Origin: a virus
Lineage: Duplodnaviria > Caudoviricetes
DNA length: 59,424 nt
Virus record (IMG/VR): IMGVR_UViG_3300048772_000090
Location: 1-59,424 of that record
Direction: 5' to 3' (one strand)
The position numbers were made by a program, and so were the translations under genes. Shown piece by piece: positions 27,935 through 39,016 of the stretch. Numbering within the stretch: the stretch's first letter is position 1; the number at the start of each line of letters is the position of its first letter. A model generated the notes under the pieces. It was not told the DNA's origin. It made no database searches and saw nothing but the letters and a program-made list of their open reading frames with translations.

Positions 27935-29326
27935 TTACTGCTGTGCTTCGTGCTGCTGGATAAAGTCGAGTGTTGCTTCTGAAAAACCATCCACATGTAG
28001 CCACTCACCATAGCCGATGCCATTACGGTCTGCACCGACGTTGATGAGGTAGTTATTCTTACCGAACGGCTTTGCGCTCGATGGCTTATTCACCAAGTCG
28101 CAGTCCTGCTCGTCCGTAAAGACCACGATACGGTCGGCGTCTGATTCCTTCTCCCGCAGCACGTCAATCACTTGCTTGAGGAAGATTCCGCCGCCGCCAA
28201 TTGTGTGACACGTCTTCTCATATGAGAGCAGGTCGCGGAGTCCGAATCCCCTGCGCGGAGGAATCAGCATCGTAGCGTGCTTGCGAGCGCAGTCGTCTCC
28301 AGCGGTTGCGTAGATTACTACGTCTTCGCAGACCTCACGAAGCAGCATTGCCAAAGCCGCAGCCGCACTCAGCCTATCCAGTTCGGACTTGCCAGAGATT
28401 TGACCGTGCATCGACCCAGAGCAATCCACAACTAGCACGGTCTTACCTGCCAGTTTAGGTTGACCCTCAAGGCAACGGAACATCGCTTGCTCCAACTCAG
28501 GCTCCAACTTTGGCGCATACTTCGCCGCCGTAATGAACCGGAAAGGAAGAACGCGCTCCGTCCTCATATTCGTCAAAGCCCCGCGAATAACCGACTGATC
28601 CACCTTCGCTTCCTGCATATTCCGCAGGTTGCGAAGCAACGCCAGAGCACCAAGCTGATTCTCTTCGATGAGACGAGTAAACGTCGCCTTCTTATCCTTA
28701 CCAGCCGACAGATTCGACTCCCAAGTGTCAGGAGCCGTCAACTTGTTCTCGGCCAGTTCCTTCCAGAGTGCCGTCTGCTCATCGTTCTGAGGCTTTGCAT
28801 GGACGAGGAAGAGCACGTCGCGCATGGCTACTTGGCCATCCCGGTTCGCGTACTTGCTCAAGGAATATCTGTCGAACTTCTGGAATGCCGCCGCTAGACC
28901 CTTCTTCATCTGAGCCGTCAAGGGCTGCTTTCCGTCCTTCCAGTGCATCGCAATAAGCTCGGCCATCTCGTCAGGACGCTGCACACAGGAAGCGATTGCA
29001 CCTGATACGACAGCGCGAGCCTCTTCCGTCTTGGCGCGGATCAGTGCAACGATAAGCCAGAGCGGGGCATGGCGCAGCTTGAACTTCGTCCGCGCCTCAT
29101 ACGCGATGTTACCGACGATCCCCGCACCATCCTTCAACTTCAGGACAGCAGCAACTTCATCGTGGATGCGCTTGGCAATCTCGACACCCTCTTCGTAGAA
29201 AGTGCCCTCAAAGAGCATCGTCGCCATCACAGAGCGGCGAAGCTGTTGAACAGCGTTAATGCGAACGGCTACCGCACCCTCATGGGTGTGGATAGGCGGA
29301 GTCTTTACGGCGACGTTGGTACGCAT
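27935..29326 (-). CDS. Ro60/Rsr-like TROVE domain protein with vWA domain
   Basis: THEGAVA, FEGTFYE, TWES, ALLRNLRNM, LPFRF, vWA MIDAS VVDCSGSM and VFTDEQ. Confidence 0.92.
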   Translation of the reverse strand: MRTNVAVKTPPIHTHEGAVAVRINAVQQLRRSVMATMLFEGTFYEEGVEIAKRIHDEVAAVLKLKDGAGIVGNIAYEARTKFKLRHAPLWLIVALIRAKTEEARAVVSGAIASCVQRPDEMAELIAMHWKDGKQPLTAQMKKGLAAAFQKFDRYSLSKYANRDGQVAMRDVLFLVHAKPQNDEQTALWKELAENKLTAPDTWESNLSAGKDKKATFTRLIEENQLGALALLRNLRNMQEAKVDQSVIRGALTNMRTERVLPFRFITAAKYAPKLEPELEQAMFRCLEGQPKLAGKTVLVVDCSGSMHGQISGKSELDRLSAAAALAMLLREVCEDVVIYATAGDDCARKHATMLIPPRRGFGLRDLLSYEKTCHTIGGGGIFLKQVIDVLREKESDADRIVVFTDEQDCDLVNKPSSAKPFGKNNYLINVGADRNGIGYGEWLHVDGFSEATLDFIQQHEAQQ

Positions 29327-29346
29327 GGTTTACTCTCCCTTTTGCT

Positions 29347-29380
29347 GCAAGATAAAGGGCTACCCCGGAGGATAGCCCTT
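29347..29380 (-). terminator. hairpin plus weak U-tract between the Y RNAs and the TROVE gene
   Basis: AAGGGCTA-loop-TAGCCCTT followed by TATCTT on the minus strand. Confidence 0.5.
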
Positions 29381-29388
29381 AGTATTGA

Positions 29389-29526
29389 TCGGTCGGAACA
29401 TACGCCTACGGTAATTTTACGTGCTCTACCACTGAGCTACGCTTCGCGGTGACCCGAAAAGCGGAAGGATTCGAACCTTCGTCCTCGTCCTTAGCATGGA
29501 AGTAACCGTAAACTTCACCAGACCGA
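29389..29526 (-). ncRNA. YrlA-like Y RNA 1 (tRNA-mimic domain)
   Basis: Terminal stem TCGGTC/GACCGA; T-arm GAAGG-TTCGAAT-CCTTC precedes D-arm TAGCTCAGTGGTAGAGC (permuted order typical of YrlA); next to the Ro60 gene. Confidence 0.85.
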
Positions 29527-29534
29527 ACATCTAA

Positions 29535-29666
29535 GAGCCGAGAACATTCGTAACAATCTCCCTTGCGGGAATCTTGCCTTACCAATTAGGCGAGTAGTTA
29601 GATTTCTCTAACCCCATTGGAATTGAACCAATAATAGAGATGTAATTGTTACTACCACTACGGCTC
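29535..29666 (-). ncRNA. YrlA-like Y RNA 2
   Basis: Terminal stem GAGCCG/CGGCTC; T-arm TTGG-TTCAATT-CCAA then D-arm GCCTAATTGGTAAGGC; shares TAC.TC and TGTTC motifs with RNA 1. Confidence 0.75.
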
Positions 29667-29683
29667 GTACTTATAAAACTTTT

Positions 29684-29763
29684 GTCGAAGGAACAAGCGA
29701 ACTCGGAAGGTGCCCGAAGGCTTTTCTGTTCAAGAGAAGTATCCGAACTCTTCACCATTCGAC
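29684..29763 (-). ncRNA. short Y-RNA-like RNA lacking the tRNA domain
   Basis: GTCGAA/TTCGAC stem with the same TGGTGAAG, TACTTC and TGTTCC motifs as RNA 1. Confidence 0.65.
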
Positions 29764-29784
29764 AAAACTTGTACTTCTAAACTT

Positions 29785-29910
29785 CGCGAAGCAGACGGGA
29801 GTCGAAACCCGTAGGAGTCATTAAAAGTGGCCCCTGTCACCATCCAAGAGAGACTTTCGAAAGTCCGTCTCGTCAACCTGCAATCTGGGTATCAGCCAGA
29901 AGGCTTCGCG
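29785..29910 (-). ncRNA. unknown tRNA-like structured RNA
   Basis: 8-bp terminal stem CGCGAAGC/GCTTCGCG, 3' T-arm-like ACGGG-TTTCGACT-CCCGT, three internal hairpins. Confidence 0.5.
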
Positions 29911-29952
29911 CTATTCCCCGCCGTCGCGGGAAACTCAAACTCAACATTCACA

Positions 29953-29981
29953 ACTCTAAGCGCAGTTCTAAAACTTGTCAA
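29953..29981 (-). promoter_or_regulatory. sigma70-like promoter of the Y RNA-Ro60 unit (TTGACA-17-TAGAGT)
   Basis: Perfect -35 with 17-nt spacer. Confidence 0.65.
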
Positions 29982-30015
29982 GCAAAATCTGCGCTTTATT
30001 TCCACAAATCTAAAA

Positions 30016-30090
30016 TGGAGCGGGAGAAGGGAATTGAACCCTCTGCGCCTTGCTTGGAAGGCAAGCACTCTACCGATGAGCTACTCCCGC
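30016..30090 (-). tRNA. tRNA-Gly(TCC)
   Basis: Cloverleaf; CTTGC-CTTCCAA-GCAAG; CCA. Confidence 0.92.
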
Positions 30091-30351
30091 CTATTTCTTC
30101 ACAACGTCCTTCCAGAACTCCACAACACTCTCAATCCCTGTATCGTCCATCAACTCGAAATCTACTTCCCCGATGGACTCTATCGAAAGGTCGCAGCATG
30201 TATCCACTTTGGCCTCCAGAGCCTTGCAGCGCATCACCTCTAGCTTCTCTTGGCACTGCATGACGGCGGATACCATATCGTCGGCACGGAAGACCATATC
30301 CGGGACAGGAGTACACTCACAACCTGATAACGTAGCAATGTAAACTGGCAT
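30091..30351 (-). CDS. hypothetical protein within tRNA operon 1
   Basis: GGGAGG RBS, start MPVYIATL, 86 aa. Confidence 0.6.
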   Translation of the reverse strand: MPVYIATLSGCECTPVPDMVFRADDMVSAVMQCQEKLEVMRCKALEAKVDTCCDLSIESIGEVDFELMDDTGIESVVEFWKDVVKK

Positions 30352-30387
30352 GTTTGAATCCTCCCGAACAATAGTAACACTGAAACA

Positions 30388-30465
30388 TGGTAGCGGATAC
30401 TGGACTTGAACCAGTCGCCTCAGCCTTATCAAGACTGCGCTCTTCTCAGGATGAGCTAATCCGCC
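30388..30465 (-). tRNA. tRNA-Ile(GAT)
   Basis: CAGTC-TTGATAA-GGCTG; CCA. Confidence 0.9.
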
Positions 30466-30477
30466 ACGTGAAATGGA

Positions 30478-30553
30478 TGGTACCCAGTAGAGGAGTCGAA
30501 CCTCTCTAGCCAGTTTGTAGGACTGGAGCCTGAAACCGATAGGCTAACCGGGC
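30478..30553 (-). tRNA. tRNA-Val(TAC), C33
   Basis: CCAGT-CCTACAA-ACTGG; CCA. Confidence 0.8.
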
Positions 30554-30558
30554 GAATA

Positions 30559-30634
30559 TGGCGCGAACGGGGAGATTCGAACTCCTGTCTCACTGATCGA
30601 CAATCAGTTGCTTTGGCCACTAAGCTACGTTCGC
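30559..30634 (-). tRNA. tRNA-Asp(GTC)
   Basis: ACTGA-TTGTCGA-TCAGT; G73; CCA. Confidence 0.88.
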
Positions 30635-30706
30635 AAAACTGTTAGGCCGTTCAGTCGCATCCAGAAGGGATATTCATTGATCCCTGCGCTTACTAGACCC
30701 GTAAAA

Positions 30707-30783
30707 TGGTGGGCGATGGCAGATTCGAACTGCCGACTGAAATTTAGGAAATTTCTGTGATTATCCAATTTCACCAAACGCCC
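30707..30783 (-). tRNA. tRNA-Arg(CCT)
   Basis: GAAAT-TTCCTAA-ATTTC; CCA. Confidence 0.88.
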
Positions 30784-30792
30784 AAAACTTGA

Positions 30793-30868
30793 TGGTCGAA
30801 CCGCTGGGATTCAGACCCAGAACTGTGTCTTCGGAGGGCACTGTGATATTCAGTTTCACCACGGCTCG
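30793..30868 (-). tRNA. tRNA-Arg(CCG)
   Basis: GTGCC-CTCCGAA-GACAC; atypical T-loop TCTGAAT; CCA. Confidence 0.8.
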
Positions 30869-30871
30869 AAA

Positions 30872-30945
30872 TGGTGCCGCAAAGGATACTCGAAATCCTG
30901 TTGGATGCGTGAGAAGCATCTATCCTACCCTTGAATGATTGCGGC
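30872..30945 (-). tRNA. tRNA-Glu(CTC)
   Basis: GATGC-TTCTCAC-GCATC; CCA. Confidence 0.85.
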
Positions 30946-30946
30946 A

Positions 30947-31024
30947 TGGTCCGAAGGACGAGACTCTAACTCGCTAGGAACGGCTTGAAGGGCCGCTTGC
31001 TCGATACACTTTGCATTCCTTCGG
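30947..31024 (-). tRNA. tRNA-Glu(TTC), C33, atypical D/T loops
   Basis: GCGGC-CCTTCAA-GCCGT; acceptor CCGAAGG/CCTTCGG; CCA. Confidence 0.65.
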
Positions 31025-31032
31025 ATAAAAGA

Positions 31033-31107
31033 TGGAGCATCCACCCCGAATCGAACGGGGATCACAACCTTAGAAGGGAAGTCTCTATCCGCTTGAGCTA
31101 TGGACGC
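31033..31107 (-). tRNA. tRNA-Arg(TCT)
   Basis: Loop CTTCTAA with a weak anticodon stem; CCA. Confidence 0.75.
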
Positions 31108-31108
31108 A

Positions 31109-31187
31109 TGGTCCCCGTGGCATGGATTTGAACCTGCGGCCTCTACCTTAAAGGGGTAGCACTCTAACCGGACTGAGTTACACGGGG
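31109..31187 (-). tRNA. tRNA-Lys(TTT), C33
   Basis: CTACC-CCTTTAA-GGTAG; CCA. Confidence 0.8.
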
Positions 31188-31193
31188 ATAAAC

Positions 31194-31268
31194 TGGTGGC
31201 AGCGCTGGGACTTTAACCCAGATCGAACTCCTTAAGAGGGAGGCATGTTGAATTAACACCACGCTGCC
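31194..31268 (-). tRNA. tRNA-Lys(CTT)
   Basis: CCTCC-CTCTTAA-GGAGT; T-loop TTAAAGT; CCA. Confidence 0.8.
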
Positions 31269-31270
31269 AT

Positions 31271-31364
31271 TGGTACCGGAAGAGGGAATCGAACCCGTCT
31301 AGCATCGGTTATCGACCGACTATATGAGGAGTATAAGGCCCCGCTGTGTCCTACACTTTCCGGC
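31271..31364 (-). tRNA. atypical tRNA-like RNA, probably Ile(TAT), with a long extra arm
   Basis: Acceptor GCCGGAA/TTCCGGT-ACCA and TTCGATT T-loop; tiny D-arm; loop CTTATAC; extra arm GTCGG-TCGATAA-CCGAT. Confidence 0.5.
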
Positions 31365-31367
31365 GAA

Positions 31368-31461
31368 TCTTAGGTGGTCGCTATAGCCTCCCCGCCTCAG
31401 TTTTGGGGCGATGTTGCTATTACAGAGCAGTCCTATCCCGTCGAATAGGAAGCGCCCAAGA
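31368..31461 (-). ncRNA. unknown structured RNA between tRNAs
   Basis: Terminal stem TCTTGGGCG/CACCTAAGA with internal hairpins. Confidence 0.4.
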
Positions 31462-31539
31462 TGGTGCCAGTGGACAGGATTGAACTGTCGGCCTCGTCGT
31501 TATGGGTGACGCGCTCTAAGCCTACTGAGCTACACTGGC
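31462..31539 (-). tRNA. tRNA-Met/Ile2(CAT), C33
   Basis: CGTCA-CCCATAA-CGACG; CCA. Confidence 0.82.
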
Positions 31540-31540
31540 A

Positions 31541-31615
31541 TGGCAGGGGAGGACGGAACCGAACCGTCAATTTCGGTTTTGGAGACCGAGAGTTTTCCTG
31601 TTAGCCTACTCCCCT
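31541..31615 (-). tRNA. tRNA-Trp(CCA)
   Basis: TCGGT-CTCCAAA-ACCGA; A1-U72, G73; CCA. Confidence 0.88.
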
Positions 31616-31625
31616 AAAAATTCAT

Positions 31626-31642
31626 TTCAATTGTCAACGAGC
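31626..31642 (-). promoter_or_regulatory. boxA-like antitermination element, operon 1
   Basis: GCTCGTTGACAATTGAA directly after the attenuator; no -10 at promoter spacing. Confidence 0.5.
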
Positions 31643-31699
31643 AAAAGTAAACCCCAGCCTGAGCCGGGGTCTGATAAAGCGGTGTTGCCGACAGACCCC
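31643..31699 (-). terminator. attenuator 1: antiterminator GGGGTCTG/CAGACCCC versus terminator ACCCCGGC-TCAG-GCTGGGGT-TTACTTTT
   Basis: Two mutually exclusive stems sharing ACCCC, starting right after the leader stop codon. Confidence 0.8.
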
Positions 31700-31771
31700 T
31701 CAAACGCGCATATCCCACCCGTCCCGCTTAATGCGGACTATGGTTTCGACGTTTTTGGTTGATCTGGTCAT
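31700..31771 (-). CDS. leader peptide 1 MTRSTKNVETIVRIKRDGWDMRV
   Basis: AGGA RBS; 23 codons plus TGA abutting the antiterminator; codons match downstream tRNAs. Confidence 0.75.
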   Translation of the reverse strand: MTRSTKNVETIVRIKRDGWDMRV

Positions 31772-31841
31772 CGTTTAATCCTAAATTGTGCTCTCATTAC
31801 CCACCGAGCAGGTGCATCCATGCTTTTACTGCACTTGAGAA

Positions 31842-31871
31842 ACTATATCACACGTCAAACTGAAAGCGCAA
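31842..31871 (-). promoter_or_regulatory. promoter of tRNA operon 1 (TTGCGC-18-TGnTATAGT)
   Basis: Extended -10; same 18-nt spacing as the early promoters. Confidence 0.55.
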
Positions 31872-31882
31872 GGAATATTTTA

Positions 31883-31961
31883 TGGTGCGCCCGGAGGGAC
31901 TTGAACCCCCTGCCTTTTGGTTCGTAGCCAAACGCTCTGAATCCAGATGAGCTACGGGCGC
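31883..31961 (-). tRNA. tRNA-Arg(ACG)
   Basis: TTTGG-CTACGAA-CCAAA; CCA. Confidence 0.92.
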
Positions 31962-31971
31962 AAACTTTTAT

Positions 31972-32061
31972 GAGGCGGCTTCATGCTACCCGGTCTAGCC
32001 GGACACGTGACCCGCTCTGACTGGCCCGGAGTTTCCTCCGCGTCTAGGCAGCGACCGCCTC
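31972..32061 (-). ncRNA. unknown multibranch structured RNA
   Basis: Terminal stem GAGGCGG/CCGCCTC; internal CGGAG-GAAA-CTCCG and CCGG-CTAGA-CCGG. Confidence 0.45.
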
Positions 32062-32077
32062 TGTAGTCACTCAAGCA

Positions 32078-32186
32078 TGGTCGGGTTTGCGAGTCTGCCA
32101 GTCTCGCACTAGAGCGCCCCATGCGCCCCGTGCTTTGATCCGTCCGTCCCGAAGGCTCTGGATCAGGCCGTTTACACTAGCACCCG
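32078..32186 (-). tRNA. atypical tRNA-Pro(TGG)-like RNA with a hairpin inserted in the D-loop
   Basis: C1-G72/A73 Pro-type end CCCGACCA; GGGCG-CATGGGG-CGCTC; TGATCC...GGATCA insert; 9-nt T-loop. Confidence 0.5.
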
Positions 32187-32194
32187 GTAAATGA

Positions 32195-32271
32195 TGGTCG
32201 GAGAGGTGAGATTCGAACTCACGTCATCTCGCTCCCAGGGCGAGTGCCTGAAGCCTCTAGGCTACTCTCCG
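32195..32271 (-). tRNA. tRNA-Pro(TGG), C33
   Basis: CTCGC-CCTGGGA-GCGAG; C1-G72; CCA. Confidence 0.88.
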
Positions 32272-32276
32272 ACTAT

Positions 32277-32352
32277 TGGTGCCAACTCAGCGAATCGAAC
32301 GCTGTTCCATTCCTCTTCAGGGAATTGTAATCACCAGACCTACGCAGTTGGC
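32277..32352 (-). tRNA. tRNA-Phe(GAA)
   Basis: ATTCC-CTGAAGA-GGAAT; CCA. Confidence 0.82.
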
Positions 32353-32360
32353 AAATCATT

Positions 32361-32435
32361 TGGTGGAGACGGAGGGAATCAAACCCTCAACTTCGGAGTG
32401 CAAAACCGATGTGTTCTCATTAGCACCACGTCCCC
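32361..32435 (-). tRNA. tRNA-Ala(TGC)
   Basis: G3:U70; loop TTTGCAC; CCA. Confidence 0.88.
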
Positions 32436-32439
32436 AAAC

Positions 32440-32607
32440 TTATTTACCGAAAATCTTTTCCATCAATTCCTTCATCCACGGATACTCTTCCGGCTTGCAG
32501 AGGATCATAGGGTACTCATACTTATACGGACCTAGAGTCTCCGCATACGCTTTCTGAAGCATCTCTAGTGTGACCTGACCCGTATTCTCCTTCGCGTCGT
32601 AGTACAT
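32440..32607 (-). CDS. 55-aa hypothetical protein (MYYDAKENTG...KIFGK)
   Basis: AGGAGG RBS; fills the gap between tRNA-His and tRNA-Ala; below the ORF-track cutoff. Confidence 0.6.
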   Translation of the reverse strand: MYYDAKENTGQVTLEMLQKAYAETLGPYKYEYPMILCKPEEYPWMKELMEKIFGK

Positions 32608-32627
32608 TGCTTCCTCCTAACAAACTT

Positions 32628-32703
32628 TGGGGCGGGATGTGGTACTCGAAACCACGTAGACTGATGCCACAGATCAGCGCCTTACCTCTCGGCCAATCCC
32701 ACC
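32628..32703 (-). tRNA. tRNA-His(GTG)
   Basis: G-1:C73; CTGAT-CTGTGGC-ATCAG; CCA. Confidence 0.88.
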
Positions 32704-32710
32704 ACATCTT

Positions 32711-32792
32711 TGGAGCACGGAGAGGGATTCGAACCCCCGGTGTTGGATGCCTGCTTACAAAACAGGTGCAGTCGCCGCTGTGCCATCCGTGC
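32711..32792 (-). tRNA. tRNA-Thr(TGT), enlarged variable loop
   Basis: CCTGT-TTTGTAA-GCAGG; CCA. Confidence 0.85.
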
Positions 32793-32902
32793 AAATCTTA
32801 ACCGGAATCTCTCTTCCGCAGTCACGCCACTAGACTCGCTGCTCGGACTTTCCGAGTGTGCTATACCCCGGACGGGGTTACGTCGGGCAGGTGTCGCCCA
32901 TT

Positions 32903-32978
32903 TGGAGCCGTCTGCGAGAATTGAACTCGCTGCCTCCGAATTACCAATCCGGTGCTCTTCCATACGAGCTACGACGGC
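32903..32978 (-). tRNA. tRNA-Thr(GGT)
   Basis: CCGGA-TTGGTAA-TTCGG; CCA. Confidence 0.88.
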
Positions 32979-33521
32979 CTATCCTACGGTTGCGTACTTC
33001 GTGTCTCCAGCGTTGTCAAAGTACAGATAAGGACGCCACTTTTCATCCTCAGCGCCCATCGACTTCAAGATGAAACGTGATGTATGTATCGAGGCCGCAC
33101 GAGGCTTGTGGATCAACTTCATCCCCGCTTCCTCTGGTGTCCTGTCCGCCTTACGACGATTGTCCTCGACACAGCAGGCTACAAGGTTACTCCATGTGTC
33201 CTTTCCTCCTTGCGCCCGAGGTACAATGTGATCCAGCGTCAACTTAGACGGATGGAAAACAATGCCACAGTACATGCAAGTGTTCCGATCCCGCAAGAAG
33301 ATGTTCTTCCTGCTCAAAATCTGGACGCGAACAGGAATGTACCGAAACTCCTTCAAGCGAATTACCGAAGGGAACATGATTCCGGGATAAATCTCTTGTC
33401 CTGTGTGCTCTTGAATAACAGCCCGATCCTTGCAAACCAATGTGAGAGCACGTCGGCAGGAACGAATGCTGATCGGCTCAAATGAGCTATTTAAAACTAG
33501 CGTTGCTTTGTTCATGTTCAT
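32979..33521 (-). CDS. HNH endonuclease
   Basis: TLVLNSSFEP, RDRNTCMYCG, LTLDHIVPRAQGG, WSNLVACC, KADRTPEEAGM. Confidence 0.9.
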   Translation of the reverse strand: MNMNKATLVLNSSFEPISIRSCRRALTLVCKDRAVIQEHTGQEIYPGIMFPSVIRLKEFRYIPVRVQILSRKNIFLRDRNTCMYCGIVFHPSKLTLDHIVPRAQGGKDTWSNLVACCVEDNRRKADRTPEEAGMKLIHKPRAASIHTSRFILKSMGAEDEKWRPYLYFDNAGDTKYATVG

Positions 33522-33565
33522 AACGCACTCTCCTTTCTGTTTACTTTACCACTAACTGCGCATCC

Positions 33566-33639
33566 AGCCTACGTTATTTGGGTGACGGATTAAATGTCCG
33601 CCTGTACGTCCCGTCGCATCTCGCGGTACAGCGTAGGCT
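33566..33639 (-). ncRNA. unknown structured RNA
   Basis: Terminal stem AGCCTACG/CGTAGGCT enclosing two hairpins. Confidence 0.4.
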
Positions 33640-33647
33640 AGAAACTT

Positions 33648-33724
33648 TGGAGCAGGCGTCCCGAGTCGAACGGGAATCGTCTTTCTTACGAGGAAAGTGC
33701 ATAAGCCACTTCTGCCACGCCTGC
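33648..33724 (-). tRNA. tRNA-Thr(CGT)
   Basis: CTTTC-CTCGTAA-GAAAG; CCA. Confidence 0.88.
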
Positions 33725-33736
33725 GTAAATCTAAGA

Positions 33737-33811
33737 TGGAGCGGGGTATCGGGATTGAACCGATGATCTTCGGTCTGGCAGACCAATGCTTTGCCACTCA
33801 GCTAACCCCGC
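33737..33811 (-). tRNA. tRNA-Gly(GCC)
   Basis: TTGGT-CTGCCAG-ACCGA; U73; CCA. Confidence 0.9.
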
Positions 33812-33816
33812 AAAAA

Positions 33817-33890
33817 TGGTTCGGTCGCTCCGAGTCGGACGGAGATAGAGAGTGTCAAAGGCTCTCGAATTGCCATTATTCGACGACCGA
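33817..33890 (-). tRNA. tRNA-Gln(TTG)
   Basis: Loop CTTTGAC; U1-A72; CCA. Confidence 0.8.
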
Positions 33891-33896
33891 TCAAAC

Positions 33897-33971
33897 TGGT
33901 TCCGGGTGGAGGATTCTGACCCCCATCTTTAGGTTCAGAGCCTAAAATCCTCACATTTGGACGAACCCGGA
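33897..33971 (-). tRNA. tRNA-Gln(CTG)
   Basis: TTAGG-CTCTGAA-CCTAA; U1-A72; CCA. Confidence 0.82.
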
Positions 33972-33982
33972 TCAATCCTTGC

Positions 33983-34000
33983 TATTCAGTTGTCAAACTC
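33983..34000 (-). promoter_or_regulatory. boxA-like antitermination element, operon 2
   Basis: GAGTTTGACAACTGAATA resembles rrn-spacer TTTGAAAACTGAATA; no -10 at promoter spacing. Confidence 0.5.
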
Positions 34001-34120
34001 CCGATCCCACTAGGGGCGGTGAAACGAAACTTTGCGACGGTGGCTATAACCTGCCCGCTGCCACCGCCGAAGTCCACGTCTGTAGTTAGCGGCCTACCTA
34101 CTCCGGGTCGTATCAAACTT

Positions 34121-34197
34121 TGGCTCATCAGGTCGGCCTCGGACCGACATCCCCGAAATTAACAGTTTCGTGCTCTGCCTACTTGAGCTACCGATGA
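34121..34197 (-). tRNA. tRNA-Asn(GTT)
   Basis: CGAAA-CTGTTAA-TTTCG; G73; CCA. Confidence 0.85.
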
Positions 34198-34207
34198 ACA
34201 TTACTGC

Positions 34208-34296
34208 AAAACTTTGGGGTCACCAGATTTTCTCCGGTGACCCCATCTACTGCTCGCTGTTTTATAAATGTCAGTCGAGAGAAGGACGGCCACCGG
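34208..34296 (-). terminator. attenuator 2: antiterminator CCGGTGGCC/GGTCACCGG versus hairpin GGGGTCACCGGA-GAAAA-TCTGGTGACCCC-AAAGTTTT
   Basis: Mutually exclusive stems; the U-tract is imperfect. Confidence 0.7.
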
Positions 34297-34369
34297 GCGC
34301 ATGATTACCGCGCGGCTGTGCTTGCGTTGCCGCTGGGGTAAAGGTTCGCGTTGTGGCTGCGTTCTTCAT
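34271..34369 (-). CDS. leader peptide 2 MKNAATTRTFTPAATQAQPRGNHAPGGRPSLD
   Basis: ATG a few nt after the predicted TSS; codons 3-29 all encode amino acids of the downstream tRNA set. Confidence 0.8.
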   Translation of the reverse strand: MKNAATTRTFTPAATQAQPRGNHAPGGRPSLD

Positions 34370-34381
34370 GTCTCTTTTGTC

Positions 34382-34410
34382 AATGTACCCGCGTTGAGAT
34401 TATTTGTCAA
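34382..34410 (-). promoter_or_regulatory. promoter of tRNA operon 2 (TTGACA-17-TACATT)
   Basis: Near-consensus sigma70. Confidence 0.75.
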
Positions 34411-34417
34411 CTGCTAT

Positions 34418-35078
34418 TTACCAGATTCCGCGAACATAGTCCTTGTAACGCCAACTCTTGCCAGTAATGTGGTCGTTTACGTCCCCGTCCTTCACGCGGA
34501 TGGTACGGCGTTTGTCGCCACGCTGTCCACTTCCAACCTGCTTCTTCCTATCGGCTGAAATGCTCCCGTGCCTATGTTCCTTATCGGCAGCGAACAGTCT
34601 TGCGGTCAGGATCGCTAGAGCAATATCCTTGTTCCGCTTCTGTGATCGCTCGTCTTCGCAGCGAACCGTTAGGCCCGTAGGAATATGCTTGAGGATGACG
34701 CAGGTTTCGAGTTTGTTGGCGTTCTGTCCGCCCTTGCCTCCTGAACGGGTAGTGGAGTATTCCAGATCGTTAGGGGATACAGAAAATTCGTATGGCTGTG
34801 GTTCTGGGAAGGTAGCGACCGTAACCGTAGAGGTTTGGACTCGTCCACTACGCTCTGTAGGCGGGATTCTCTGCCATCTGTGGCCGCCTGACTCGTTAGC
34901 AAATATCTTCTCAACTCCCTTTCCGGTAACTCGGAAAACAACAATTCCCGGTCTTTCCTCAGTCAATTCGAGGTCAAAGCCCCCTCCGCTCCGCAAGTTT
35001 TGTGTAGATGCGGAATTGGTCGATCACAAGTAATTTAGCATCCATTCCTCCCTCAGCAGCCCTAATCTCAATTATCAT
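34418..35078 (-). CDS. short class-I peptide chain release factor (lacks domain 1), expressed through a +1 frameshift; join(35078..34977, 34975..34418), about 219 aa
   Basis: AGGAG RBS; MIIEIRAAEGG (RF domain 2 start) in frame 0; ESGGHRWQRIPPTE...RVQTS, GGKGGQNANK, RSQKRN and RGDKRRT in frame +1; junction CGGAGG-GGG-CTT-TGA-C. Confidence 0.88.
34973..34988 (-). promoter_or_regulatory. prfB-type programmed +1 frameshift signal
   Basis: Internal SD GGAGG, 3-nt spacer, CTT TGA C; same layout as the RF2 signal AGGGGG-TAT-CTT-TGA-C. Confidence 0.88.
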
Positions 35079-35228
35079 TTCATTTCTCCTATTCGCGTCA
35101 GGATAAAACCCGAATGGCCCCATTTCTGAGGCCACTCGCGGCTCGTGCAAGGACATTATGTACGCAGGCACAATTAGGAGCGGTACGCTCCCTGGTTGAT
35201 GCGGCCTTTCGACCGCGAGATAAGCATA

Positions 35229-35579
35229 CTATTCACATGGGGTTAGGTCAAGGTAATAGTTCTTACCCGGAACAAACGTGTCGCAGACATCGGGATTATC
35301 AACAAGGAACGTCATGGTTCCGCTTGGCGTTGCGGCAGCGAAACTAACATCCTCTGGATTACTTGTGTCGTACTGCGCGGCTAACCGCACGTTCTGAGCA
35401 AACTTTCCAGTAGAGATGTACTTGACTTTCTTACCATTATCCGTGTACTCAGTTCCAACCAGAGCAGCATAGTCCTCCGGCGTTACTGAGTCCTCGAAAA
35501 CTCGCTTTGAAACGGCGTTGTCAGTCAGCTCTACGCTAACCACACGGAACTTGCAGCGGGTACGAATCGCTTCTGGCAT
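35229..35579 (-). CDS. hypothetical protein
   Basis: AGGAG RBS; RCKFRV...FAAATPSG...PGKNYYLDLTP. Confidence 0.75.
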   Translation of the reverse strand: MPEAIRTRCKFRVVSVELTDNAVSKRVFEDSVTPEDYAALVGTEYTDNGKKVKYISTGKFAQNVRLAAQYDTSNPEDVSFAAATPSGTMTFLVDNPDVCDTFVPGKNYYLDLTPCE

Positions 35580-35675
35580 AAACTCTCCTAAATTTGGTTG
35601 GGAAGCACCGCTATGCTTGCGGCATCACTGAGCCACGCCAAGGTTATCCTGCGGCTCACATGGACAGCATAACAT

Positions 35676-35714
35676 AAAACAGCAATGGCTCCCACTTAAG
35701 TTGAGAGCCACTGC
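35676..35714 (-). terminator. intrinsic terminator closing the ncRNA cluster
   Basis: GCAGTGGCTCTCA-ACTTAAG-TGGGAGCCATTGC-TGTTTT. Confidence 0.7.
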
Positions 35715-35742
35715 CGGTCGTGCCTTCTATTTATAGGAAATC

Positions 35743-36789
35743 TTTGCAGCGGGTCGGATTCCTATACCGGCATGGCGGTCTGCACTAGGTGATGCCTCTT
35801 TCGAGGGCTTATGCTGGCTCTCGCTGCCGCGTGGGTTTCTCACCCATCCGCCGAACTGCTAATCCCTTCCGGGACTCGGACGACCTAGCCAAGTTAGCGG
35901 GTTCCTCCCCGCCGCCACTGCAAACTTTGCCCGTTCGTATTGAACGGAGCCGAAGTCACCAACAATCGAGTGCTGGACTCCTACTCCGATCTCTGCGCCA
36001 CCCCATCTTGGGTACTCGCGTCAGGATTGCAGATCGTTTCGCTTGGAATTCTTTGCAGCGTTCTGCTCTCTCGTTACTCCTCGCGGCGTCTAGAAGCTAC
36101 CGATTCTGGAAGACCGAACACCTCAAAAGAGTGGAGTCTTGGGGTCTAAAGGAGTGTCCTACCACTCTTCCGCTGCAAACCTTTGAGGCGCGGCTCCGAT
36201 TCTGGCTAACCAGTCACCGTTTTATCCTTTGCGGGAGAGACCTGTCAGTTCCGCCTCAAACTTTTCCCGTCCCAAACCGATAAGAGAAGGTGGCCCCTCG
36301 GACGGCCACTAACCGCCCATTCTCTCCGGCTCGACTTAGCAGACCGATAAGGCGTTCTGAACAGCCTCCGGCCCGCGACAGGAAACTTTATAATCCCCTA
36401 AAATGTGGGGCCGTTCGGCCTTGCAGATACTAGGCTTCGACCGATCTTACAGCTTATTATGGACGATCAATCGGCTTGGCGTCCAGCTATTACCTCTCCA
36501 CCGTTCTCTTCCTACTAGGCCCCTTCGTCGGGGGTATTCTAAAATCCAGCGGCGTTGCGTCATTGTCGCTGCGAAAGTATGCCTACGTTCGCGTTCTCGG
36601 ATGGCCCCGGATTTCTCCGTCTGACGCTATCCCTGATGTTTGCTTGCCGCTGAAACTCAAACTATGCTCGTCTTTCCGAGCCGCCAAGGGACGTTACCGT
36701 TACCCTACGCGTCTTTCCGTGTCTCGTCACTCCCGTTACTGAGGACGTTTTGAATGGCCGTCTATGAACGTGAGTCGAAGTCTCCCAGC
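35743..36789 (-). ncRNA. tandem cluster of at least six unknown structured RNAs
   Basis: No RBS-supported ORF; consecutive units closed by 7-11-bp terminal stems, several separated by the AAAGTTT-type spacer also seen after tRNA CCA ends. Confidence 0.6.
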
Positions 36790-36797
36790 CAGATCAA

Positions 36798-36867
36798 TGG
36801 TTGCGCAGGGAAGAGTTGAACTTCCGTCCTTGGCCTTATGAGAGCTAGGCATACCGCTATCCGCGCA
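36798..36867 (-). tRNA. 70-nt tRNA(CAT)-like RNA with a reduced D-arm
   Basis: Acceptor TGCGCGG/CTGCGCA-ACCA, loop CTCATAA, T-arm GGAAG-TTCAACT-CTTCC. Confidence 0.55.
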
Positions 36868-36878
36868 GGACAAATATC

Positions 36879-37460
36879 TCATCCTGCGCCAACGATGTCA
36901 AGTGGTATTTTATAGAATATGGTGCGTTGAGCAGGAGTCGAACCTGCGGTGTTTGCTCGTAGAGTCACAGATTTACAGTCTGCTGCCTTCGCCACTGGGC
37001 CACCAACGCATAACTTTTCATATTTCTTTGGAGAACGACGTTTTTGCCGACACTCCCTGCAATCTGTTTCAAGTCCTCTACGCTTTGACCTATCCTTCGT
37101 AAAATCTCCAACTGGAAGCCAATCCTGATGCCCATAACACCATGCCATTCCGGGAGGATCAATGCGTCTCAAATGGGCGTTGGCGTCCATTGCTCGGAGA
37201 TCACGTTTGGTTTTCTCTAAATGGCAACCGTGACAACGTGCTTTGCATTTCTCCAATTCTTCCAATCTTTTAGCATCACCCCAACTCCATACAGTGTGGC
37301 TCACTTTTGTCGAAGGATCAACATGATCTAGTTCAAGATTGTCCCAAGTCCCGCAATCCACACATGGACCGTTCTCTGCAAACCACTTTCTCCTACGTTC
37401 TTTGACGACTCGCTCATACCACGCCTTTTGTGCTGCCTTCCACTTCACCATATCTCTCAT
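36879..37460 (-). CDS. HNH endonuclease; the reading frame runs through tRNA-Tyr
   Basis: CVDCG..NLELDHVDP...CHGCH plus a second CYGH/CREC zinc finger. Confidence 0.8.
   Translation of the reverse strand: MRDMVKWKAAQKAWYERVVKERRRKWFAENGPCVDCGTWDNLELDHVDPSTKVSHTVWSWGDAKRLEELEKCKARCHGCHLEKTKRDLRAMDANAHLRRIDPPGMAWCYGHQDWLPVGDFTKDRSKRRGLETDCRECRQKRRSPKKYEKLCVGGPVAKAADCKSVTLRANTAGSTPAQRTIFYKIPLDIVGAG
36920..37009 (-). tRNA. tRNA-Tyr(GTA)
   Basis: GCAGA-CTGTAAA-TCTGT; long variable region; CCA. Confidence 0.9.
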
Positions 37461-37466
37461 GGCGGA

Positions 37467-37495
37467 AGTATACAGCTATAACGGCGGAAATACAA
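37467..37495 (-). promoter_or_regulatory. promoter for a leaderless HNH transcript (TTGTAT-17-TATACT, ATG 6 nt downstream)
   Basis: Spacing places +1 on the A of the ATG at 37460. Confidence 0.55.
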
Positions 37496-37511
37496 CAACT
37501 AAACACATTAA

Positions 37512-37604
37512 TGGAGGAAGAAGCGAGATTTGAACTCGCGGTGCCGGTCACCCGGACACTCCCGTTTTCAAAACGGGCGCTTTAGACCACTCAGCCATCC
37601 TTCC
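37512..37604 (-). tRNA. tRNA-Ser(TGA)
   Basis: CCCGT-TTTGAAA-ACGGG; long variable arm; CCA. Confidence 0.9.
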
Positions 37605-37608
37605 AAAC

Positions 37609-37694
37609 TGGCGGTAGGGAAGCGATTTAAACGCTTAATACCTTTCGGTATGCTCGGTTTCGAATCGAGGTGTCCCATCAATGACAGCCCTACC
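37609..37694 (-). tRNA. tRNA-Ser(CGA)
   Basis: Loop TTCGAAA; long variable arm; atypical D/T loops; CCA. Confidence 0.75.
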
Positions 37695-37698
37695 AAAC

Positions 37699-37788
37699 TG
37701 GCAGTGAGGATGGGATTCCAACCCACGATACCCTTACAGGTATTCTTGCTTTCCAAGCAAGCGCCTTCGAGCACTCGGCCACCTCACT
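37699..37788 (-). tRNA. tRNA-Ser(GGA)
   Basis: CTTGC-TTGGAAA-GCAAG; long variable arm; CCA. Confidence 0.85.
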
Positions 37789-37793
37789 GTAAA

Positions 37794-37884
37794 TGGCGAT
37801 GAGACTGAGATTCGAACTCAGGACACCCTTTTGAGGTGCTTCGTCTTAGCAGGACGATGCCTTAAGCCACTCGGCCATCTCACC
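37794..37884 (-). tRNA. tRNA-Ser(GCT)
   Basis: TCGTC-CTGCTAA-GACGA; long variable arm; CCA. Confidence 0.92.
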
Positions 37885-37893
37885 GTAAAACTT

Positions 37894-37970
37894 TGGTGCG
37901 CGACCGGGAAATCGAATCCCGAAACACCTCTGTTTGAAAAAGGCGGCTTTGCCTATTTGCCTAGTCGCGC
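37894..37970 (-). tRNA. tRNA-Leu(CAA), short variable loop
   Basis: CCTTT-TTCAAAC-AGAGG; A73; CCA. Confidence 0.82.
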
Positions 37971-37979
37971 ATAACCTTT

Positions 37980-38056
37980 TGGTGCCAGTGGGGGAAATCG
38001 AATCCCCAAACATATCGCCCTAAACGATACCGCTTTGCCTATTTGCGTACACTGGC
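37980..38056 (-). tRNA. tRNA-Leu(TAG), short variable loop
   Basis: TATCG-TTTAGGG-CGATA; CCA. Confidence 0.82.
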
Positions 38057-38064
38057 ATAAAACT

Positions 38065-38143
38065 TGGTGCCGGGAGCGGAAATCGAATCCGCACTGTCAC
38101 AGCCTTCTTAGGACTGCCGCTTTGCCATTTTGCGTACCCCGGC
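38065..38143 (-). tRNA. tRNA-Leu(AAG), A34, short variable loop
   Basis: CAGTC-CTAAGAA-GGCTG; CCA. Confidence 0.8.
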
Positions 38144-38149
38144 TAAACT

Positions 38150-38227
38150 TGGTGCGCTAGGGCGAATTCGAATCGCCAAACTCTTCCGTCTGAGGAAAGA
38201 AGGTATACCAATTCCCATCACTAGCGC
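38150..38227 (-). tRNA. tRNA-Leu(CAG), short variable loop
   Basis: CTTTC-CTCAGAC-GGAAG; CCA. Confidence 0.82.
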
Positions 38228-38230
38228 ATT

Positions 38231-38245
38231 TAATTGTCAAAGAAC
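38231..38245 (-). promoter_or_regulatory. boxA-like antitermination element, operon 3
   Basis: GTTCTTTGACAATTA, close to boxA GCTCTTTAACAA. Confidence 0.6.
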
Positions 38246-38322
38246 TGGAGAGCGGTGTCAGATTTCAACTGACGATTAGCAGTTTTGCAGACTGCTGCGT
38301 TTGAGCACTTCGCCAACCGCTC
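38246..38322 (-). tRNA. tRNA-Cys(GCA)
   Basis: GCAGT-CTGCAAA-ACTGC; U73; CCA. Confidence 0.88.
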
Positions 38323-38323
38323 A

Positions 38324-38403
38324 TGGTGTGGGCATCGGGATTCGAACCCGAAGAATAGACAATTTTTAGGACTGTCCGGCTATACCTGTTCGCCTATACC
38401 CAC
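38324..38403 (-). tRNA. tRNA-Leu(TAA), C33, short variable region
   Basis: ACAGT-CCTAAAA-ATTGT; CCA. Confidence 0.78.
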
Positions 38404-38503
38404 AAACGAAAACCCCTCCGTTTTGAGTGGAGGGGTTCGTCACAACCTTGGGAGGATTACACCTTATATCCCTCTCCAACGCGCAAGCGAACCCCCGCTC
38501 AAA
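38404..38503 (-). terminator. attenuator 3: antiterminator TTTGAG-CG-GGGGTTCG/CGAACCCC-TCCA-CTCAAA versus terminator AACCCCTCC-loop-GGAGGGGTT-TTCGTTT
   Basis: Mutually exclusive stems; the terminator ends directly at the 5' end of tRNA-Leu. Confidence 0.82.
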
Positions 38504-38547
38504 CTGAGCGATGACAGGCAATACGAGTTGGATAAGAGGTTCTTCAT
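38464..38547 (-). CDS. leader peptide 3 MKNLLSNSYCLSSLSLSGGSLARWRGI
   Basis: 13 of codons 4-17 are Leu/Ser/Tyr/Cys, the amino acids of the downstream tRNAs. Confidence 0.82.
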   Translation of the reverse strand: MKNLLSNSYCLSSLSLSGGSLARWRGI

Positions 38548-38563
38548 ATCAGATCGCAAAGTT

Positions 38564-38592
38564 AGATTACATTCCTGCCGAGCGGTTGTCAA
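38564..38592 (-). promoter_or_regulatory. promoter of tRNA operon 3 (TTGACA-17-TAATCT)
   Basis: Near-consensus sigma70. Confidence 0.72.
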
Positions 38593-38599
38593 GCGGTTT

Positions 38600-39016
38600 T
38601 TACGGAGTTGGCGTTCCGAAAGTGCTTGCGATCTCTGTCGGCACCTCAACGGCAGCAACCACTGTCACTGTGTCCGTGCCGCTCAGACCATACACTGAGT
38701 CTCCGTAGGTGTCCGTTACGGTTCCCGGTGCTACTGCTGTCCATGTTGCTGTGCCGTCGCCATTATCAACGACGCTTGCGATGGTTGGATCGCTGCTTAC
38801 TACGGTGATGTCTGCGCCAACAACAGGAACGTTTCCTGCGGCGTTCGACTCTGTTACCGTCTCGATGACGGTCTGGCCTACCGTAAGGGTGATTGGCATG
38901 GTAACTCCTTCAAAATGACTGTGGATTTGGGTGGGACGGTGGGAACGAAGGATTTCAAGCACTTCTTTTAGTTCGTGCCTGATTTCCTCCAAAAGATGGA
39001 TTTCATGGTGAGTCAT
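38600..39016 (-). CDS. Ig-like (Big-2-like) domain protein; an internal start at MPITLTVG is possible
   Basis: Thr/Val-rich, VSSDPTIASV...TAVAPGTVT. Confidence 0.6.
   Translation of the reverse strand: MTHHEIHLLEEIRHELKEVLEILRSHRPTQIHSHFEGVTMPITLTVGQTVIETVTESNAAGNVPVVGADITVVSSDPTIASVVDNGDGTATWTAVAPGTVTDTYGDSVYGLSGTDTVTVVAAVEVPTEIASTFGTPTP

Follow-up and report, generated by a model that had tools for sequence, protein, structure and literature searches.

Operons for amino-acid biosynthesis can be controlled by ribosome-mediated transcription attenuators, such as thrL, ilvL of ilvGMEDA, trpL, hisL, pheL and leuL, in which a promoter-proximal short ORF is rich in the relevant codons. In these leaders, four RNA segments form 1:2, 2:3 (antiterminator) and 3:4 (terminator) pairings, and a stalled ribosome gives read-through; among them, thrL and ilvL mix several amino acids. 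The pheST attenuator of E. coli, with the pheM leader, appears to be a similar element placed before a gene of the translation apparatus, and responds to charged tRNA-Phe. T-box riboswitches also measure tRNA status and decide between terminator and antiterminator in a leader; however, a T-box binds uncharged tRNA directly, needs no translation, and has a specifier loop and a T-box motif. In addition, large phages, such as T4, T5, mycobacteriophages and the metagenomic huge phages, can carry many tRNA genes in clusters next to other translation genes.

Here we analyzed a window of 59,424 nt, the whole of IMG/VR virus record IMGVR_UViG_3300048772_000090 (estimated 63% complete), which carries 34 tRNA genes, all on the minus strand between 30016 and 38403. 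The array sits among translation-related genes, including a 192-aa RF-1/PCRF-domain protein (34996..34418), two HNH endonucleases and a Ro60/TROVE protein. The nearest GenBank records to the RF-like gene are uncultured phages of 485-735 kb, at no more than 48% identity, and no cultured relative was seen; moreover, a DNA similarity search with 33500-36000 gave no match among GenBank phages. In front of 12 of these tRNA genes we found a short ORF, termed leader 2, and a hairpin, which together resemble a leader-peptide attenuator.

A leader ORF written in the codons of the downstream tRNAs

Leader 2 consists of 32 codons plus TGA, of which codons 3-29 use only Asn, Ala, Thr, Arg, Phe, Pro, Gln, Gly and His, exactly the amino acids of the tRNAs that follow. 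It lies 12 nt behind the -10 of a sigma-70-like promoter with 10 of 12 consensus matches, so that the 5' UTR is inferred to be only about 5-7 nt, and tRNA-Asn begins 73 nt after the stop. However, the promoter scan as a whole found 11 sites against 8.4 +/- 3.2 in shuffles, thus a promoter hit alone proves little. The sequence-only reading had described this run of 27 codons, and we confirmed it. By contrast, its count of 13 tRNAs with two tRNA-Pro was not reproduced, as both ARAGORN and Infernal found 12 tRNAs between this leader and the next, with one Pro(tgg). The 233-nt gap 31962-32194 gave no tRNA hit and folds no better than shuffles (z -0.85); the amino-acid set is unaffected.

Features of leader 2 and of its two sister leaders in the window
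Feature	Position (strand)	Sequence	Description
Promoter of leader 2	34382..34410 (-)	TTGACA-17-TACATT	-35 at 34410..34405, 17-nt spacer, -10 at 34387..34382
Leader 2 ORF	34271..34369 (-)	MKNAATTRTFTPAATQAQPRGNHAPGGRPSLD, then stop	32 codons plus TGA; codons 3-29 at 34363..34283
Region 1	34353..34367 (-)	GAAGAACGCAGCCAC	ORF nt 3-17; predicted to pair with region 2
Region 2	34279..34297 (-)	core CCGGTGGCC at 34296..34288	ORF nt 73-91; predicted antiterminator strand; ends 5 nt before the stop codon
Region 3	34233..34245 (-)	UGGGGUCACCGGA	5' arm of the hairpin; starts 26 nt after the stop codon
Loop	34232..34228 (-)	GAAAA	Loop of the hairpin
Region 4	34215..34227 (-)	UCUGGUGACCCCA	3' arm of the hairpin; 13-bp stem
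Trailer	34205..34214 (-)	AAGUUUUGCA	UUUU starts 3 nt after the stem
tRNA unit	31883..34197 (-)		12 tRNA genes: Asn gtt, Gln ctg, Gln ttg, Gly gcc, Thr cgt, Thr ggt, Thr tgt, His gtg, Ala tgc, Phe gaa, Pro tgg, Arg acg; interrupted by an HNH endonuclease gene (33521..32979) and a 55-aa ORF (32607..32440)
Sister leader 3	38404..38547 (-)	MKNLLSNSYCLSSLSLSGGSLARWRGI, then stop	ORF 38547..38464 behind TTGACA-17-TAATCT; terminator CCCCTCC-9-GGAGGGG plus TTTTCGTTT at 38435..38404; downstream Leu x5, Cys, Ser x3, Tyr
Sister leader 1	31649..31821 (-)	1a: MDAPARWVMRAQFRIKR, then stop; 1b: MTRSTKNVETIVRIKRDGWDMRV, then stop	Two ORFs, 31821..31768 (1a) and 31771..31700 (1b), overlapping in ATGA; antiterminator GGGGTCTG / CAGACCCC; terminator at 31672..31649; downstream Trp, Met, Lys x2, Arg x3, Glu, Asp, Val, Ile, Gly

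The run of 27 codons is the longest in the window in any of six frames, whereas the next longest is 16, with the set covering 0.47 of all six-frame codons. As the stretch is T-poor, we shuffled the letters of the 31-codon body, and a run of 27 or more arose in 0 of 200,000 mononucleotide, 6 of 200,000 codon-position and 0 of 50,000 dinucleotide shuffles. At least 27 of 31 codons fell in the set in 173, 3326 and 80 of those shuffles, respectively.

Further analysis at the codon level revealed that 24 of 31 codons of leader 2 are readable by the operon's own anticodons under strict wobble, compared to 2 for each of the other two operons in the window. The exact codons for all three Thr anticodons (ACA, ACG and ACC) and both Gln anticodons (CAA and CAG) are present. 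All three Arg codons are CGA/CGC/CGT and all three Gly codons are GGT/GGC, which fit anticodons ACG and GCC of this operon, and not the Arg and Gly tRNAs of the next operon. Both other tRNA operons in the window have matching leaders with canonical terminators. Leader 3, which also starts ATG AAG AAC, scores 15 of 26 with its own operon against 5 and 5, and leader 1b scores 10 of 22 under strict wobble and 17 of 22 at the amino-acid level.

Predicted RNA structure of leader 2

The hairpin downstream of leader 2 has a dG of -28.1 kcal/mol for 34250..34205 (z -7.8), and 0 of 200 shuffles are as stable. As the sequence-only reading had noted, the ORF's 3' part (CCGGTGGCC) pairs with GGTCACCGG of the hairpin's 5' arm. 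In the transcript from the ATG to the end of the 5' arm, the MFE pairs CCGGUGGCC (ORF nt 74-82) with GGUCACCGG, and 11 of 11 arm nucleotides are paired to the ORF. The duplex energy of region 2 with the 5' arm is -21.0, against a mean of -14.7 for 500 dinucleotide shuffles of the ORF, of which 5 reach it. In the MFE of the whole leader (34376..34205), region 1 is predicted to pair with GUGGCCGUCCUUC and the hairpin forms. These predicted alternative pairings correspond to the classical 1:2 / 2:3 / 3:4 layout of an attenuator.

Notably, the hairpin is followed by AAGTTTTGCA, in which AAG intervenes between the stem and the U-tract, and the hairpin was not listed in our first terminator scan. 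The caveat of the sequence-only reading, that AAAGTTTT is not a clean U-tract, is correct. The motif CAAAGTTT occurs 9 times in the window against 2.25 expected, with 0 of 100 shuffles reaching 9, and four of the seven copies in the tRNA region directly follow a tRNA CCA end. The trailer is therefore the phage's usual tRNA 3' trailer, and it resembles what is probably the RNase E preference, RN/WUU.

A close variant is found in metagenome contigs L050-L053, whose RF-like protein is 95-98% identical. They carry the same promoter letter for letter, and their leader reads MKTHSATTRTFTPAAQPQGNRASGGHLPLD before the stop, with 23 of 29 codons in the set. It differs from the window by substitutions and two indels of +3 and -9 nt, both of which keep the frame and the same stop, although two in-frame indels are only modest evidence for translation, roughly 1 in 9 by chance. 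The region 2 core is kept, and the hairpin is rebuilt through compensatory changes with different letters on both arms (GAGGCCCUACCGG / CUGGUGGGGCCUC, dG -26.9), whereas CAAAGTTTTGCAG is unchanged. A 1:2 pairing similar to that of leader 2 appears possible in the variant.

Leaders of tRNA clusters in related huge phages

Using the RF-like protein, we fetched 26 viral loci and further tRNA clusters of three of those records. The flanks of the RF-linked arrays in the records G001, G003, G004 and G005 held almost no tRNAs, and the other clusters were located with the Rfam tRNA model. The region around the RF-like gene of LR745208.1 has no tRNAs. A DNA search with 33640-34420 in five relatives' records gave only short chance-level hits. 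Short ORFs before tRNA clusters repeat the pattern. They include MNNITLSPSLSLLAYYLS..., MTNLTLSLTLYSLLSG... and MNRVFLASLRLYSYLSG... before Tyr/Leu clusters, MTKMRPMPMFPPSPM..., MNTMRPFSGFRPYTPP... and MTLMRPTPTFRPCTP... before Pro/Met/Phe clusters, ...VVACAGTVAAEAAAVNEGD... and ...GAVGAVAAVCEAEGIVAAGAAD... before Val/Ala/Asp/Cys/Gly/Glu clusters, ...KSSRKHQRRNNR... before Gln/His/Arg/Asn/Lys, and ...KITTGTTTTTKTGKGKPM... before Met/Thr/Lys/Gly/Asn.

All 13 leaders compared, including those of the window, have a short ORF followed by a hairpin, and the 10 leaders in relatives have textbook hairpin-plus-U-tract terminators. The stop-to-hairpin spacing is 23-28 nt in 10 of 13, and most have a TTGACA promoter, although a promoter-plus-ATG pattern search hit only 2 of 130 loci, because it was too strict. 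The ORF's 3' part is complementary to the terminator's 5' arm beyond shuffles in 10 of 13 at <=10/500, and in 12 of 13 at <=39/500; the exception is leader 1b, whose antiterminator lies after the stop. RNAalifold on the four Leu/Ser/Tyr leaders recovered only the terminator core with little covariation, because the alignment is poor. A simple terminator scan of the more distant RF-linked loci found only L020. Moreover, some clusters in relatives (loci L046 and L048 in G004, and L133) have no leader.

To test whether leader composition follows tRNA content, we took one leader per type, 7 of the 13, leaving out the Pro/Met/Phe leaders of loci L002 and L005, the three Tyr/Leu leaders of relatives and that of locus L045; leader 1a was also not used. 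The true leader-to-set pairing is the single best of 5040 permutations, each set's own leader has the highest in-set fraction (7 of 7), and every leader contains every amino acid of its set. As the relatives' leaders were first picked by eye from ORF lists, this test carries selection bias, but two less biased scans point the same way. The best ORF in 131 upstream regions was compared with 117 antisense controls (L001 and L007 dropped as duplicates), which gave counts of 4 against 1 at p<1e-3 and 2 against 0 at p<1e-4. In addition, a structure-first scan for a terminator upstream of a tRNA plus an ORF ending <=36 nt before it (L001 and L028-L037 dropped) returned 18 unique ORFs without using composition, which include the leaders among the 13 that it could detect and about five probable false positives.

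A second lineage is represented by G006, the record of L020, which is 482,156 nt, 100% complete and AT-rich, with promoters that look like the TAnnTTTG type, possibly Bacteroidota-like, and 62 tRNA hits. Six of the 7 clusters inspected have a matching leader followed by a canonical terminator, one of which is the Met/Thr/Lys/Gly/Asn leader described above, lying in L020. The others are MTTTLTYTNRFTADCADEQLL... (with ADCADE) before Asp, Cys, Glu and Ala; MKTTLSLSLSLSLSLSGW... (with LSLSLSLSLS) before Leu(tag, taa, caa) and Ser(gga, tga, gct), written only with TTG, TTA, CTA and TCA, TCG, TCC, AGT; MRFNNNNQQQYQQNNY... (with NNNNQQQYQQNNY) before Asn x3, Gln x3 and Tyr; ...IIPQFQFVVPF... before Pro, Phe and Val; and MKNRNHIHKHQIWHR... 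before Trp, His x2, Ile and Arg x3. The seventh cluster (L133), Cys plus a CTA-anticodon tRNA, abuts a protein gene and has no leader.

Proposed mechanism and alternative explanations

We propose that leader 2 is the sensor of a ribosome-mediated transcription attenuator that controls the 12-tRNA operon of an uncultured huge phage; the sequence-only reading had proposed a leader-peptide attenuator in front of a tRNA operon. This is the best-supported reading and we consider it likely, although translation of the ORF, termination at the hairpin and the direction of regulation are all inferred. A ribosome that moves quickly to the end of the ORF would cover region 2, leaving region 3 free to pair with region 4, so that the 13-bp hairpin forms and RNA polymerase stops at, or is strongly slowed by, the hairpin and its AAGUUUU trailer. 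By contrast, a ribosome stalled earlier, on a codon whose charged tRNA is scarce, would cover region 1 and leave region 2 free to pair with region 3, so that the hairpin cannot form and the operon is transcribed. As the leader is written with the codons that the operon's own tRNAs read, the products would shut the switch off again, which would give a supply-on-demand loop, with one loop per tRNA operon. On read-through transcripts, the AAGUUU trailer probably also marks the cut that frees tRNA-Asn.

Several features of leader 2 fit this model less well. The U-tract is not adjacent to the stem, and the trailer is the phage's generic tRNA 3' trailer, so the hairpin could be a processing or stability element. 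The Shine-Dalgarno is weak (AGAGA) and the 5' UTR is very short. The single His codon (23) and the Gly codons (21, 26 and 27) lie next to or inside region 2, where a stall should mask the antiterminator rather than free it, by our estimate of the ribosome footprint. The amino acids are scattered, with 1-6 codons each, rather than in tandem runs. The HNH gene and the 55-aa ORF within the operon mean that internal starts cannot be excluded, and a charged-tRNA shortage caused by amino-acid starvation cannot be told apart from loss of the tRNA itself. Fifteen metatranscriptome runs contain at most 0.15 of the words of the 9.4-kb stretch, and in the four that we compared with the window, all of them contigs, none covers 34010-34323. 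One 490-nt contig lies on 34328-34424 and then departs from the window at the places where the L050-L053 variant differs, and one 446-nt contig spans leader 3, its terminator and tRNA-Leu/Cys (38224-38665, 3 differences). As contigs cannot show ends or levels and may include DNA, we draw no conclusion from them.

It is possible, but rather unlikely, that the leader ORF senses translation as proposed while the stop signal at leader 2 is not an intrinsic terminator. Either Rho or another factor might act on the untranslated stretch after ribosome release, or the hairpin with its trailer might be only an RNase (RNase E-type) entry or protection site that sets transcript stability. The displaced U-tract, the frequent occurrence of CAAAGTTT after tRNA CCA ends, and the conservation of the trailer in the variant while the stem changed favor this view. 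However, the sister leaders and the leaders in relatives have textbook terminators at the same spacing from the stop, the hairpin of leader 2 is very stable, and UUUU still lies within the 7-9 nt where release occurs. Moreover, the antiterminator/terminator competition would be pointless for a mere cleavage site.

Two further explanations seem improbable. The region might simply be the 5' leader of a constitutive tRNA precursor removed by RNase P/E, with a codon match that is a by-product of composition or chance. Indeed, the C/A/G-rich and T-poor letters alone raise the expected in-set count to 20-23 of 31, and no expression data cover this stretch. Against this stand the rarity of the run in shuffles, the matching leaders at three of three operons in the window, the agreement of composition with tRNA content across seven leader types and in a distant AT-rich phage, and the in-frame indels of the variant. 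Alternatively, the short ORFs might encode micropeptides with a function of their own, or serve as translational primers that load ribosomes onto or stabilize the tRNA precursor, without controlling transcription. The ORFs are conserved as ORFs, and some bacterial leader peptides act in trans (PMC7298713; 10.1101/864512); however, the peptide sequences are not conserved between phages, only their composition relative to the neighboring tRNAs is, and the 3' third of each ORF is dictated by pairing with the terminator arm.

More broadly, huge phages might run a bank of codon-resolved feedback loops, in which each tRNA cluster carries a composite leader peptide that polls the very codons its tRNAs read. 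The cluster would be transcribed only when ribosomes stall on one of them, for instance when the host pool does not fit phage codon usage or is being destroyed by host shut-off or anticodon nucleases. We regard this as somewhat more likely than not. It would be the first case of tRNA genes governed by leader-peptide attenuation, and a natural, modular sensor of individual tRNA supply, present in at least two very different phage lineages. Such an attenuator would show that these phages measure decoding capacity and top it up on demand, and the leaders offer compact natural parts for sensing single tRNA species.

Comparison with known systems

No T-box was hit at the gathering threshold over the whole window, nor at E<=1 over 29300-38700, and no other cis-regulatory Rfam family is found here. 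Like other tRNA arrays of large phages, the array lies next to translation genes, but we found no description of leader ORFs or attenuators in front of such arrays, nor of leader-peptide or attenuator control of tRNA genes in phages or cells, in full-text searches that did not cover subscription journals and supplements. Compared to the pheST attenuator, which controls a synthetase for one amino acid in a cell and has no tRNA gene under it, leader 2 precedes tRNA genes. Leader 2 shares with thrL, ilvL and the other attenuators of amino-acid operons the promoter-proximal ORF rich in the relevant codons and, by prediction, the four-segment layout; however, the genes it would control are tRNA genes rather than genes for amino-acid biosynthesis, transport or aminoacyl-tRNA synthetases, so the product, the tRNA itself, would close the loop. 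In addition, up to nine amino acids are polled in one leader, mostly as single scattered codons, unlike the tandem runs of hisL or pheL, and the element sits in phage genomes, with several parallel copies per genome, one per tRNA group. Altogether, the mechanism class is textbook, whereas its use on tRNA genes, with composite leaders and several parallel switches per phage genome, appears to be new.

Genes and RNA elements neighboring the tRNA array

Directly downstream of the tRNA array lies a Ro60/TROVE plus vWA protein (Pfam TROVE, 2.3e-13), beside which is a weak YrlA (Y RNA-like) hit of 33.9 bits against a gathering score of 69 (E 2e-4). Together with a TTGACA-17-TAGAGT promoter, this arrangement looks like a phage Ro/Y-RNA module. 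Immediately upstream of the leader 2 promoter sits a short (192-aa) release-factor-like protein, with an RF-1 domain (1.5e-27) and the C-terminal part of PCRF, which is conserved next to tRNA clusters in 26 viral and 80 metagenome loci. In addition, an HNH endonuclease gene lies inside the tRNA array. A second, cysteine/histidine-rich ORF has no Pfam hit, and its last ~45 codons run across tRNA-Tyr.

A stretch of about 1.2 kb without a convincing gene is bounded by a TTGACA-17-GATATT promoter and a strong terminator. It holds a sub-threshold tRNA-like hit (26.2 bits) and repeated CAAAGTTTGCAG-like motifs. Notably, RNA-library contigs of two studies join 36537/8 to 36656/8, skipping about 118 nt, which could be an intron or a strain indel.

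The tRNA genes encode CCA and are followed by AAGTTT. The sequence CAAAGTTT occurs 9 times against 2.25 expected, and is probably a shared 3'-processing signal. Leader 1 is preceded by a second short ORF (MDAPARWVMRAQFRIKR, followed by a stop codon) that overlaps it in ATGA. This ORF also carries CGG, AGA and AGG, the exact codons of the three Arg tRNAs downstream; the two ORFs may be translationally coupled tandem leaders.

Coordinates of the features in the window and in two huge-phage records
Feature	Record or locus	Position	Strand
Ro60/TROVE plus vWA protein	window	27935-29326	-
YrlA-like hit (weak)	window	29402-29512	-
TTGACA-17-TAGAGT promoter	window	29981..29953	
ORF preceding leader 1	window	31768-31821	-
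HNH endonuclease gene	window	32979-33521	-
Release-factor-like protein	window	34418-34996	-
Stretch without a convincing gene	window	35680-36901	-
Strong terminator	window	35716..35680	
tRNA-like hit (sub-threshold)	window	36802-36866	
TTGACA-17-GATATT promoter	window	36901..36873	
Cysteine/histidine-rich ORF	window	36879-37460	-
tRNA-Tyr	window	37009..36920	
Motif 3' of tRNA genes (examples)	window	32629-32622, 33649-33642, 34122-34115, 37895-37888	-
tRNA, anticodon CTA ('Pyl')	L046 (G004)	1949-2149	-
tRNA, anticodon CTA ('Pyl')	L133 (G006)	879-952	
Basic ORF	L134 (G006)	357-592	
Repeated box	L131, L132, L135, L136 (G006)	about 200-350 nt upstream of the first tRNA	

Features of tRNA clusters in other huge phages

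ARAGORN calls tRNAs with the anticodon CTA in two huge-phage records, G004 and the AT-rich phage G006. These are possible amber suppressors and hint at stop-codon recoding. In G006, a highly basic ORF of about 80 aa lies between the terminator of the Asn/Gln/Tyr leader and the first tRNA-Asn, and would therefore be co-regulated with the tRNAs. Moreover, at four loci of this phage, a repeated ttcctatatttg box precedes each leader region.
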